The notes: generated by a model from the letters alone, not told the origin. 20,000 bases of DNA from an uncultured virus (IMG/VR IMGVR_UViG_2541047494_000006) (IMGVR_UViG_2541047494_000006); one strand, 5' to 3'. Positions 1 to 3,183 are shown, numbered from the stretch's first letter. Made by a program: numbers and translations.

Positions 1-316
1 CTAATTCTATACTATTTTTTCTTTTTATTGCTTCTAAAACTGTATAATTTTTATTACTAATTTGAACATTTGTTATAGCATTAGAGATATTAATTGCTTT
101 ATCTAATGCGTTATAATTATATATTAAATCTTCTATTTGTTGGTATTTACTTGAAACTTCTACATTAAAATCTTCTACACTTGTTTTTGTTTCATATACA
201 TTTTTATCAGAGCCTTTTTTAGTACCTACAATTTTAAAATTACTAATGCATCTATCTATCTTATCTTCTAATAACTTCTTTTCTGCTAAAGCTTTATGAA
301 CATTATATTTAACCAT
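1..316 (-). CDS. Hypothetical coiled-coil phage protein (3' end beyond window edge), possibly DIP1984/DUF6847-like
   Basis: Own translation from ATG at 316 (RBS AAGGGAG upstream): MVKYNVHKALAEKKLLEDKIDRCISNF...NALDKAINISNAITNVQISNKNYTVLEAIKRK. The frame stays open to position 1. Family call is from memory only. Confidence 0.8.
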   Translation of the reverse strand, partial: MVKYNVHKALAEKKLLEDKIDRCISNFKIVGTKKGSDKNVYETKTSVEDFNVEVSSKYQQIEDLIYNYNALDKAINISNAITNVQISNKNYTVLEAIKRKNSIEL

Positions 317-371
317 AAAAACATCTCCCTTTTAATTAAGATATTATTTAAAAATAACAAACTTTTTTTAT

Positions 372-462
372 TGGAAGAGAGGAAGGGATTTGAACCCTCG
401 TATCAAATTAATTGACCTAATAGTTTAGCAAACTATCCTCTTTACCACTTGAGTACCTCTCC
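372..462 (-). tRNA. tRNA-Ser (anticodon GCT), long variable arm, encoded CCA
   Basis: Reverse complement gives acceptor GGAGAGG/CCTCTCT, D-loop AAGTGGTAAA, anticodon arm ATAGT-TTGCTAA-ACTAT, a long variable arm, T-arm GAGGG-TTCAAAT-CCCTT and 3' TCCA. Confidence 0.95.
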
Positions 463-474
463 ATATTTCTATAA

Positions 475-1077
475 ATTACAAACAGCAAGTCGAGTATCCC
501 TACCCTCGACCATGGTCAAGTGCTGTATTTTAAAACTCCGACAGCTCGGATAGCGTGGCTGTTTTTTCACACTAAAGAATCTTTTTTAATTGTCCACTAT
601 TTGGTAGAACATCACCACTTTTTTATAAATAAATCTACATAAAAATTACTTAGTTCAAAAGACTATTTGATTTATTCACAATTTCTTCAGTTTTTTATTA
701 GCCAGGTTCTTCTGACAAACACCTCGACTTGTTTTTGGTTTTTTATTAGCCAGGCACACCAACAAACTCCTCTAATTTTAAAAAGCAGAAGTAGAATCTG
801 TTACCTCAAATTCTACTTCTTTATTCTTACACCTTTAAGGCATACTAGGGCATTCACCGTATCTATTTCAAGTTATATGTTGCTCGTCAACCTCGTGTAT
901 ATTTGCCACGCTATATTCATTTTAGCAGCATCATCATCTTATATTTGTAAAATACCTATTACCAGCCACTAGAGCTTCTCAAAATGAGCTATCTCTGCTA
1001 ATTGTATTAATTTTTAGCATATTCTAGGTTTGCTACCATATGTCACCATATGAAAGGGCTTTTAACCCATACGCTCT
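475..1077 (-). ncRNA. Candidate large structured ncRNA (about 600 nt) between HU and the tRNA
   Basis: No credible ORF and GC-richer than the flanks. Long-range 10-bp inverted repeat (550-559/905-914), GNRA hairpin CATATG-GTGA-CATATG (1037-1052), hairpin at 787-820, nested stems at 482-526, and a 17-nt repeat at 690-706/738-754. Confidence 0.55.
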
Positions 1078-1356
1078 CTATATAATTGCATCTTTTAAAG
1101 ATTTAGCTATTTTTAATTTTGGAACTCTTTTTTCCTCAGTTTTCCAAGGTTTTTTAGTTCCATCTTTAAGAGTTATTTCTCCTTCTTTACCTTTTTGTAT
1201 TTTAGTTAGGTATTTAACTCCCATCAACGTCAATTCTTCACCATCTTGTAGTACTTCGTTTCTTTTTTTTTCTATCACATCAAGTATCTCTCTTACTCTT
1301 ATCTGTGATACACCTAATTCTTCTGCTACTTCTTTTAAAAAATCTACTTTTTTCAT
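1078..1356 (-). CDS. hup: HU/IHF-family DNA-binding protein
   Basis: 92 aa basic protein: MKKVDFLKEVAEELGVSQ..., GEELTLMG, and C-terminal KRVPKLKIAKSLKDAI, matching the HU pattern. RBS AAGGGAG. Confidence 0.85.
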   Translation of the reverse strand: MKKVDFLKEVAEELGVSQIRVREILDVIEKKRNEVLQDGEELTLMGVKYLTKIQKGKEGEITLKDGTKKPWKTEEKRVPKLKIAKSLKDAII

Positions 1357-1489
1357 ATCTTCTTAATCTCCCTTTTCTTATATAATTTTCATTTGATAAT
1401 AGTAAGGAATAATTTTATTATTTTTATTAACCCCTTACATAAGTAATATGTTTTAAGCGACCCTTTTTTAAACCACTTTTCCCCACCAG

Positions 1490-2932
1490 CTAATTACAGT
1501 TTTTACAATTTGAGCGATATCCCTTTTTACCATTTTTATCAAACCTAGATAGCAACTTAATTTTTCCACATCTGCTACATTTTTTATATTTTCCTTTACA
1601 AACAGATATATAATAATAATTTTCTTCATAGTTTTTCTCATATGCATCTATTATTTTGTTCACTATTTTATTTATTTGATTATTTATTGCTTGAGGAGTT
1701 ATATTCATTAAATTTGAAATAAACTCTAATGATTTATCTTTTCTATATAAATTTAAAATATCTTTTTGTACTGTGGTAAATTCAATTTTAGATATAATAT
1801 TATTTAAATCCATAACTATACATGTTAAATCATCTTGCAAATCATTACCCTTTTGAATCCTTAAAAGCTCTTTAACATGTGATTTATCAAACATATCTAA
1901 ATAGTCCCATTCTGGGCTTCCTGCATCTGCTAATGGTGCTTTCCATATAATTGGTCTCTCTATAGAATTTTTAACATCAGTCATATCATTTTTTAATGCA
2001 TTTAAATTTTTCCTAACCATTCTCTTAAGTTTTAACTCTTCTTTACTTAATTGTTTATGTCCTAATTCTTTATATTTAGCTTTATACCATTCATAAGTAT
2101 CTGAGTATGTTTTTATAATTGGATATTTTTTAATATCTTTAGGTTTAACTTTTATATCTTTTATTTTTTTATAGTTTTTAGGTAATTGAAAAAATGCAAA
2201 GGAATTGTCTTCTAGGAATCCATCTTTATTAGAAGTGTTTGAATTTATATTTCCACCATTTGCAGGTGCTATTTTATTTAGAAGTGCTTCTTCCTGACAT
2301 GCTCTATTAAATAACTCTTTTGAATTGTATATTCTTATTTTAGTTTCCTTAGGTTTATCATCTACTGAGAGTATATAGCTCCCCATTATTTCTAATGTTT
2401 TTGCTATATTAGAAGTAGAATATATACTGTCATCTTTATTTAATATCAACTTAATTTTCGATGTATTATGATGTGTGTACTCCCATGTACCATTACTATT
2501 ACTAAAAGGATTTTTAACATTTATATATTCGATTGGATTAATTTGATTATAGCCACACCAAGTAATGAATCTATTATAATCCATAACTACTTCTTCTCCA
2601 TCAATAGTAACATAATATACACCATCTTTATCTAAAGGACTATCTGATGTTTGCTCAAATATATTTTCCCAAAATTTATCATTGAATTGTTTTTTTTCTT
2701 GATATTTCACTCTAGTAATAATATTCTCATTTCTCTTTGTAAGAGTATTATAAAATGTATCTATATAATTTCTATTTGACTCTTCAAACCACGTGTGTTT
2801 TACCCCTAATCGTTCCTCTATGTATTTAATTCTATCTTTGCTATTGTCTATGCTATAATCTAAATTCTTTATGTAATCTTGTGCAGATTTGCCATCTATT
2901 TCTTCATAAAAATTGTTATTATTATATATCAA
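1490..2932 (-). CDS. Phage protein with C-terminal sigma70-region-4-like HTH and CxxC...CxxC zinc ribbon (putative transcription factor)
   Basis: FTTVQKDILNLYRKDKSLEFISNLMNITPQAINNQINKIVNKI is a sigma4/LuxR-like HTH, followed by CSRC...CKNC. TTG start with GGAGG upstream. Confidence 0.7.
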   Translation of the reverse strand: MIYNNNNFYEEIDGKSAQDYIKNLDYSIDNSKDRIKYIEERLGVKHTWFEESNRNYIDTFYNTLTKRNENIITRVKYQEKKQFNDKFWENIFEQTSDSPLDKDGVYYVTIDGEEVVMDYNRFITWCGYNQINPIEYINVKNPFSNSNGTWEYTHHNTSKIKLILNKDDSIYSTSNIAKTLEIMGSYILSVDDKPKETKIRIYNSKELFNRACQEEALLNKIAPANGGNINSNTSNKDGFLEDNSFAFFQLPKNYKKIKDIKVKPKDIKKYPIIKTYSDTYEWYKAKYKELGHKQLSKEELKLKRMVRKNLNALKNDMTDVKNSIERPIIWKAPLADAGSPEWDYLDMFDKSHVKELLRIQKGNDLQDDLTCIVMDLNNIISKIEFTTVQKDILNLYRKDKSLEFISNLMNITPQAINNQINKIVNKIIDAYEKNYEENYYYISVCKGKYKKCSRCGKIKLLSRFDKNGKKGYRSNCKNCN

Positions 2933-2934
2933 TA

Positions 2935-3183
2935 TTATACCTCCTTTCCTTGCAATCCATCATCATAATCTGTATCATCATAATCCCATAGTTCATCCTT
3001 AAAATCCTCCTTATGCCTTTCATTTACAATATCATATGAAGACCTTTTACTCATCTCTGTGTATGTATCTATCATTTGTTCATATTCCTCATTTAATATT
3101 TGATACCTATTTTTATGTACGCCTGTTTTCTCTGATTCATCTAAATCTTCTAAATATATTAATTCTATTTTTTTCTCTTTCAT
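2935..3183 (-). CDS. Acidic hypothetical protein
   Basis: 82 aa ORF with RBS AAGGAG, abutting the next gene. Confidence 0.75.
   Translation of the reverse strand: MKEKKIELIYLEDLDESEKTGVHKNRYQILNEEYEQMIDTYTEMSKRSSYDIVNERHKEDFKDELWDYDDTDYDDGLQGKEV

Follow-up and report, generated by a model that had tools for sequence, protein, structure and literature searches.

IStrons (CdISt1 and its relatives) are described as chimeras that join a group I intron with an IS200/IS605 or IS607 element; derivatives without an open reading frame (ORF) are reported down to 482 nt, and the elements occur in Clostridioides difficile and in clostridial phages (PMC4227781). According to a review, a group I ribozyme in the 5′ untranslated region (UTR) of a C. 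difficile mRNA is coupled to a c-di-GMP aptamer (PMC3984707). A further comparison is with the mobile phage group I introns of the IA type, which sit in nucleotide-metabolism genes and for which the Prevotella Lak megaphage nrdD intron and RF00028-positive IMG/VR relatives stand here. Here we examine a spacer at positions 463-1077 of a 20,000-nt stretch of DNA from an uncultured virus (IMG/VR IMGVR_UViG_2541047494_000006; the whole stretch is hereafter the window). The spacer is ORF-poor and flanked by an HU-like gene and a tRNA-Ser gene, both on the minus strand. An earlier note, made from the sequence alone, had read it as one structured noncoding RNA of about 600 nt, of the ROOL or GOLLD type or of a new class. 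We instead favor, with a probability of about 0.6, a mosaic of a decaying, splicing-incompetent group I intron relic and lineage-specific sequence with a terminator-like hairpin.

The evidence for intron descent comes from the 152 nt nearest the HU gene, hereafter the module (Table 1). A permissive search of phage records returned a 50-nt match of 84% identity to the window in nine Prevotella Lak megaphage records (E 3e-4). The Lak element begins exactly at the end of an ORF that matches Pfam NRDD up to profile position 541 of 562 (E 1.4e-15). The Lak nrdD frame breaks just past the equivalent of the GGGU strand of P1 and, in our reading of the sequence, resumes about 275 nt on, continuing the protein. 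Because the NRDD ORF stops at the element and its frame resumes downstream, we consider the Lak element to be an intron in nrdD, about 275 nt long by our count compared with about 150 nt for the module. In the Lak loci L093 and L050, it interrupts the nrdD-like gene at a point 21 Pfam profile positions short of the end.

To collect relatives, we used a degenerate 32-nt pattern from the P2-J2/3-P3 stretch of the module. It retrieved 42 IMG/VR loci (30 distinct sequences), many on unrelated phage contigs, and six loci in bacterial genome contigs. When 12 pattern loci were scanned with Rfam, three scored with RF00028 (Intron_gpI; cut-off 50 bits) over the pattern itself (L087, 52.1 bits; L107, 45.0 bits; L089, 43.7 bits), a fourth held a 71.4-bit intron elsewhere in the locus, and the other eight were without a match at E ≤ 0.01. 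In the RF00028 alignment of L087, the shared stretch carries the labels P1, P2, and P3 (5′ strand). A covariance model (R1), made from nine full-length phage variants of the module, aligned full-length to L096 (45.1 bits) and to the Lak locus L093 (36.3 bits), intron-like elements of unrelated phages, and matched 16/17 loci from outside C. difficile at E ≤ 1. In the alignments to L096 and Lak, the last third of the module corresponds to the P7 5′ strand (of the GACUA type in L096), the P3 3′ strand, P8, J8/7, and the P7 3′ strand. The relatives thus match beyond the collecting pattern too, which argues against a resemblance confined to it.

We assessed the helices in a model-fitted alignment of ten sequences (the window, two sister variants, and seven distant relatives), in which fitting to the structure itself favors pairing. 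There, 95.1% of cells were paired, 28/41 pairs had changed on both sides, and covariation was present in every helix; 0/500 shuffles reached any of these measures, and slid controls paired at 32-54%. Covariation within the nine phage variants alone was not significant (60/500 shuffles). Judged from these sequence comparisons, the module is a descendant of phage group I introns, yet it fails several of their defining features. This kinship shows closely related intron cores to be in circulation across phages of both Firmicutes (C. difficile) and Bacteroidota (Prevotella Lak megaphages). The Rfam group I model misses this subclass, including the intron that splits nrdD, and similar gut-phage elements are therefore probably under-annotated.

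Like mobile phage group I introns, the window copy has the order P1-P2-P3-P4-P6-P7-P3′-P8-P7′, a U.G pair at the 5′ splice-site position, a GNRA-looped P2, and covarying helices. The core helices P3, P4, P6, P7, and P8, with the P3/P7 pseudoknot, follow in canonical order, and R1 is collinear with L096 and Lak. P1 pairs GGGU (1068-1065) with GCCC (1059-1056), includes the U.G pair, and also scores as a weak terminator-like site. Across the variants, the splice-site pair is U.G in five, U-A in three, and U-U in one (phiCD211). The outer and loop-closing pairs of P2 covary family-wide (C-G/A-U/U-A at one, G-C/A-U at the other), the P4-like helix (helix 3) has 4/6 pairs doubly changed, and the P6 region (helices 4 and 5) is 100% paired, with 5/7 pairs doubly changed. 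For P7, with a deletion derivative of the LIBA2945 type included, 3/7 pairs are doubly changed and 96.9% of cells are paired, which 1/500 shuffles equals. The consensus fold is better on the minus strand than on the plus strand (-30.3 vs. -20.3 kcal/mol), and the G.U pairs exist on the minus strand only. Both hairpins that the earlier note had listed in this segment are present: its GUGA hairpin (1037-1052) is a palindrome whose loop reads GUGA on the minus strand only, and its TGCTAA/TTAGCA pair is the P4-like helix.

The window copy departs from these introns in several respects. At the P5 site, where relatives carry insertions of 14-50 nt or more, it has a 12-nt loop and no P5. No P9 hairpin was seen past the module end, and homology among the phage variants ends directly after the P7 3′ strand; in sister phages, the sequence past this point is the leader of the downstream ORF, and that leader is also found without the module. 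A canonical group I P7 carries the guanosine-binding G-C pair; by the core mapping that we presume to apply, the window has G.U at this pair and the LIBA2945 type has A-U, in a P7 of shifted register. The copy lies in the spacer rather than in a gene, its P1 U.G pair 13 nt past the HU stop codon, and in the window the module interrupts no gene: the HU protein covers Pfam positions 1-89 of 90. Among the relatives, P2 is broken in two variants, and P1 is broken in two truncated copies (L055 and L060). RF00028 gave no match at E ≤ 10 on window 300-1500, on 760-1100, or on an E-type copy (L019 2560-2960).

The window is a phiCD211-like C. difficile phage-plasmid. Over 1,101 compared bases (window 300-1400), its identity is 100% with Clostridioides phage AR1086-1 and 94.8% with phiCD211/phiCDIF1296T. 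Phages of the AR1086-1 and phiCD211 type are about 130 kb C. difficile phages and have been called large extrachromosomal ('plasmidial') phages (PMC5786514); that paper mentions the tRNAs, and the terms 'intergenic', 'non-coding', and 'origin of replication' do not appear in it. In titles and abstract beginnings of the literature on phiCD211/phiCDIF1296T, on structured RNAs of C. difficile prophages, and on group I introns and their remnants, no description of the element appears.

We compared the neighborhood in 23 IMG/VR loci from 21 distinct related contigs, two of which were represented twice, and in phage and plasmid records. The full spacer is present in 7/21 contigs, one identical to the window and six in the phiCD211 form, which lacks 48 nt. 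The module occurs in 15/21 contigs at 88-100% identity and in three different contexts, and each of five phage records searched has one full copy. In six of the 15 contigs, it lies about 130 nt upstream of an ORF of 276-295 aa, which is followed by tRNA-Ile or tRNA-Met and then by tRNA-Ser; in two, it occupies the place where a tRNA would be expected. In sister phages, the module sits between noncoding elements and not inside a gene, and in the E and F types it is always upstream of a leader, a terminator-like hairpin, and a ribosome-binding site. One contig keeps a short derivative (P1′ plus P7/P8), and one is without the module. Two contigs delete window 438-988 and two others delete 398-1053; both deletions extend into the tRNA and destroy it. 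In a phiCD211-type contig from an RNA library (X5), there are 7 substitutions in the 567-nt spacer vs. 5 in 1,385 nt of flanks. The deletions and this substitution rate show the region to be dispensable and to change faster than the sequence around it.

The junction of the larger deletion is visible at L025/L026 3920-3934, where the first hairpin of the module is joined to the similar T-arm of tRNA-Ser through nearly the same 15 nt; the whole spacer and two thirds of the tRNA are taken out. Sister phages also contain a conserved noncoding element of 150 nt upstream of the module or the tRNAs (L023 3560-3700; L019 ~2500-2640; L004 ~2830-3000). Its complementary segments are interleaved in pseudoknot order, some differences keep the pairs, and it has no Rfam match. 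The leader of the 276-295-aa ORF (L049 4380-4470; L019 2810-2910) forms two hairpins that keep their pairing by compensatory changes, and one of the two resembles a terminator and has a conserved loop; this leader may be an attenuator or riboswitch-like. A 187-aa ORF next to the module (L019 1932-2495) resembled a GIY-YIG protein by eye; this candidate was set aside, as the ORF matched no Pfam family and its PHROGs match is of unknown function.

We read the module as a relic because it has no P5, no P9, and no RF00028 match, lies outside a gene, and shows broken pairs and deletions in relatives. Positions 1071-920 would then be a mobile phage group I intron core (P1 with its U.G pair, P2, P3, P4, P6, P7, and P8) that presumably lost P5 and everything beyond P7, that now lies in an untranslated spacer, and that is probably decaying slowly and no longer able to splice. 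Recombination would carry and reshuffle the module among phiCD211-like phages. The remainder, 919-463, would be sequence of the phiCD211/AR1086-1 lineage, in which the hairpin at 820-787 could end the HU transcript and an AT-rich stretch would lead into a hairpin-rich leader of tRNA-Ser. Both parts are probably transcribed on the minus strand together with the HU gene. The sequence comparisons establish the homology, the helices with their covariation, the mosaic distribution, and the deletions; the transcribed strand, the loss of catalysis, and the terminator function are inferred.

A number of observations weigh against this interpretation. At E ≤ 10, RF00028 also misses the Lak nrdD intron, L096, and L123, and its silence is for that reason weak evidence of decay. 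P7/P8 pairing is kept through three double substitutions in the LIBA2945-type derivative, which has no P2-P6; the pattern of substitutions suggests selection on P7/P8 beyond the need of a dead relic. If the P7/P8 unit is functional, it would illustrate how an intron core can acquire a new use. Eight of ten variable pairs are fully paired in every phage copy through one-sided changes (60/500 shuffles). A G at 917, 6 nt past the P7 3′ strand, could serve as the terminal G of a minimal active intron. The mapping of the P7 guanosine pair draws on the general layout of group I cores plus an alignment shifted in register relative to the relatives with GACUA/UAGUC. The folding energy of the module segment (920-1077, 158 nt) is unremarkable, with z -0.77. 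In RNA-library contig sets from two studies, the phiCD211-form spacer is contiguous with its flanks, in contigs that are possibly DNA-derived and show neither strand nor ends; two raw-read runs chosen by species label lacked the phage. Finally, a 10-bp inverted repeat in the remainder of the spacer is rarer than chance (3/200 shuffles) and is left unexplained.

Several of these points would also fit a module that still works as an RNA, either as a minimal self-splicing or self-cleaving group I-type ribozyme or as an element of an untranslated region domesticated for cis-regulation or processing; its targets could be the HU 3′ end, the downstream ORF in sister phages, or the tRNA precursor. P7 and P8 covary within the phage group, the one-sided changes leave eight variable pairs intact throughout the nine variants, and the minus-strand fold is the better one. 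The window retains the U.G pair and the G past P7, the E/F copies always precede a leader, terminator-like hairpin, and ribosome-binding site, and RF00028 is insensitive to this subclass. The missing P5 and P9 tell against activity, as do a mapped guanosine-site pair that is not G-C in the window, a splice-site pair lost in phiCD211, P1 or P2 broken in other copies, deletion of the module in several relatives and its absence in one, and E/F variants with no G near the module end. No spliced joint was found in the RNA-library contigs, which drop rare forms. We consider a working RNA unlikely on balance.

A precedent for such an RNA is the group I ribozyme regulator in the C. difficile 5′ UTR. 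As far as the review (PMC3984707) describes it, that RNA resembles the module in being group I-type, in a C. difficile-associated genome, and in untranslated sequence; it differs in being complete and in having a riboswitch aptamer. Rfam detected no aptamer in the window. A narrower form of the idea, which we hold to be more doubtful still, is that the module is a naturally minimized group I-type RNA without P5 and P9, kept in untranslated regions for cis action with P7/P8 under selection. Such an RNA might, for instance, cut or remodel transcripts ahead of tRNAs or ahead of the following gene, and would be the smallest functional group I derivative known.

We also considered IStrons as a source. 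As described in PMC4227781, they resemble the spacer in layout, with an intron core placed 5′ and sequence of non-intron origin after it; the 5′ flank in the window, TATGGGT, is not among the T-rich pentanucleotides reported there for group A IStrons. The genome of C. difficile CD160 (G006) has 25 RF00028 matches on many contigs, 22 of them above the cut-off and six starting near contig position 60, a pattern as expected of a repeated IStron-like element. Among the 150 of 1,090 CD160 candidates that were scored, R1 gave two matches at E ≤ 1, both in the intron cluster of one phage contig, and none at the other RF00028 copies. IStron identity was rejected, as R1 has no match at the IStron-like CD160 copies and translations of 463-930 show no similarity to a transposase in PHROGs or Pfam; as far as the sequence comparison goes, the module is unrelated to the many IStron-like RF00028 copies of CD160. 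The cluster itself, on phage contig C28 (G006 28533-29371), consists of three tandem intron-like matches within 0.9 kb, two of them to RF00028 (90.2 and 48.8 bits) and a weak one to R1. Other group I introns are present in phiCD211-like phages (W01, phiCD211, 28894-28998; G002, 41068-41172).

A role of the region as DNA, whether as a recombination boundary, as a site for maintenance or replication of the phage-plasmid, or as what is left of a small non-autonomous mobile element with the 10-bp repeats at its ends, appears very improbable to us. It would suit the mosaic context and sharp homology boundaries of the module, the direct repeats that give the 48-nt indel, the deletions at short homologies (one between the P1 hairpin and the similar tRNA T-arm), and the inverted repeats flanking 345 nt. 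The direct repeat has only two copies, with one in phiCD211, no extra copy of the 10-mer pair occurs in 150 loci compared, and neither a target-site duplication nor a transposase relic was found. The covariation of the module, with its G.U pairs, fits RNA and not DNA.

The mosaic reading separates the module from the other 456 nt (919-463). For these, we found no nucleotide homolog outside phiCD211-type records in phage, plasmid, IMG/VR, metagenome, and genome collections at the sensitivities used. Exact-pattern scans returned 0 loci from the genome collection and one from metagenomes, a phiCD211-type contig, and a second motif returned only phiCD211-like contigs. Stop-masked translations of 463-930 matched no PHROGs or Pfam family, in a Pfam test that also failed the true Lak nrdD exon 2 and so had no power. 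A by-eye likeness to NrdD peptide remnants past the module was set aside on that account. Two candidates were rejected here. A gene relic was sought by tblastx against the genes at this position in sister phages, which matched only the module and the tRNA; a pseudo-tRNA was sought on the minus strand with ARAGORN relaxed to 70%, which found only tRNA-Ser.

The 11-bp stem of the earlier note lies in this part: 787-800/807-820 has 11 perfect pairs, or 14 with one mismatch. Minus-strand terminator-like sites number two in the scan, against 0.4 ± 0.7 expected; sigma-70-type promoter sites were not enriched (6 found vs. 5.5 expected). The longest minus-strand ORF of the spacer is 33 aa. The 29-aa ORF in Table 1, which follows a strong Shine-Dalgarno-like site, is probably not a gene, because it spans the 48-nt indel and is cut in phiCD211, to about 12 aa in our reading. 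The 48 nt absent from phiCD211 correspond to one 17-nt repeat plus the intervening sequence, with the skip between 707 and 756. An AT-rich stretch separates this ORF from the tRNA-proximal leader.

The remaining pairings of the earlier note are likewise real as sequence. ATAGCGTGGC (550-559) and GCCACGCTAT (905-914) are 10/10 complementary with 345 nt between them, and ACAGCA (482-487)/TGCTGT (521-526), its '3′ domain', encloses GTCGAG (489-494)/CTCGAC (505-510), with an alternative partner at 515-520. Wherever a locus covers the complete A or B spacer, both arms of the 10-bp pair occur without change; elsewhere they are absent, with no further copy of the pair among the loci compared. Since neither the 10-bp pair nor the '3′ domain' varies in any copy, they have no comparative support. 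The phiCD211 substitutions at 499 and 505 in the leader are not compensatory.

It follows that the claim of a structured RNA beside the phage tRNA holds for an element that includes two of the listed hairpins, and that this element (1071-920) covers only about a quarter of the region. That the 10-bp long-range helix closes one large structured noncoding RNA of a new class, made up of the whole ~600 nt, is highly doubtful. Perfect inverted repeats of at least 10 bp arose in 36/200 dinucleotide shuffles and of at least 11 bp in 14/200; G+C-weighted, the 10-bp pair was equalled in 3/200 and the 11-bp stem in 5/200, and it is the rarity of the 10-bp pair, together with its appearance in the minimum-free-energy folds of both strands, that speaks for a single RNA. 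The A/B-specific part, outside the module, folds with z -3.3 (whole spacer, -2.3 on the minus and -3.3 on the plus strand; 20 shuffles), a tRNA adjoins in a phage, and G+C is raised (0.30-0.375 in 200-nt segments overlapping the spacer, starts 401-901, vs. 0.175-0.30 in coding segments). Against a single unit, the two parts are distributed differently among related phages, some of which have lost nearly the whole region plus part of the tRNA; the 48 nt missing in phiCD211 belong to central helices of the predicted fold, 0/7 substitutions between the window and phiCD211 are compensatory, and a terminator-like hairpin stands mid-region. Folding energy does not set the spacer apart and is not diagnostic, because the adjoining HU coding sequence is more extreme (1078-1356; z -4.5 on the minus and -3.9 on the plus strand, with 0/200 shuffles as low).

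ROOL and GOLLD share with this locus Firmicute phages, tRNA neighbors, and long ORF-free, G+C-enriched stretches; the spacer has neither the size nor the unity nor the conservation to be expected of them. Both are Rfam families. Gathering and permissive scans of the window and relatives with Rfam 15 (4,227 models) gave only tRNAs at threshold, and for the spacer nothing relevant at E ≤ 10, so ROOL and GOLLD are excluded because no Rfam family matched. Nor does a new ornate class fit a module that derives from a known one, group I introns. An ORF-free, G+C-enriched stretch beside a phage tRNA can thus be the wreck of a mobile intron and not a new giant RNA.

Table 1. Features of the spacer and its flanks in the window (strand: -, minus;., no strand assigned)
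Feature	Position	Strand	Basis or remark
tRNA-Ser(GCU)	372-462	-	Intact; ARAGORN; RF00005, 57 bits
tRNA-proximal leader with mutually exclusive small hairpins ('3′ domain' 482-526)	463-549	-	Folding z -0.58
10-bp GC-rich inverted repeat with 345 nt between arms	550-914	.	Function not explained by relic plus lineage sequence
AGAGGAG Shine-Dalgarno-like site, then 29-aa ORF	676-765	-	ORF scan; ribosome-binding-like site by eye
17-nt direct repeat, two copies 48 nt apart	690-754	.	phiCD211 type keeps one copy
Intrinsic-terminator-like hairpin, 14 bp then GCUUUUU (the 11-bp stem)	787-820	-	Terminator scan, shuffles
Group-I-intron-derived module, 152 nt, P1 to 3′ strand of P7, without P5 and P9	920-1071	-	Model R1, covariation
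P7-like helix (971-965 with 929-923) enclosing P3 3′ strand and P8	923-971	-	Model alignment, covariation
P8 hairpin	954-948 with 941-935	-	Within P7-like helix
P3 pairing	1029-1025 with 958-954	-	Our reading of the sequences
P6-like helix GAG/CUC with inner hairpin	972-995	-	Consensus of variants, model alignment
P4-like helix UGCUAA/UUAGCA, 12-nt loop at P5 site of relatives	996-1019	-	Model alignment
P2 hairpin with GUGA (GNRA) loop (the 1037-1052 hairpin)	1036-1053	-	RF00028 labels the L087 equivalent P2
P1-like hairpin GGGU/GCCC, U1065.G1059 at 5′ splice-site position	1056-1068	-	RF00028 labels the L087 equivalent P1
HU-family DNA-binding protein gene	1078-1356	-	Pfam PF00216, E 4.8e-9; so annotated in phiCD211

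Three pieces of the spacer, 30-42 nt long, have paralogs in a second ORF-poor region of the nearest phage record compared, which extends over about 900 nt (L067 867-1781; G001 ~35.9-36.8 kb). In two of the three shared pieces, the differences keep small hairpins paired, and at a relaxed threshold ARAGORN reports a weak tRNA-Gln-like structure in that region. Every gene in the first 9 kb of the window is on the minus strand. The gene at window 1490-2932 encodes a 480-aa protein whose PHROG is annotated as a sigma factor (E 8e-139) and whose C-terminal part has weak matches to HNH endonuclease, endonuclease VII, and Lar-like zinc-ribbon families.

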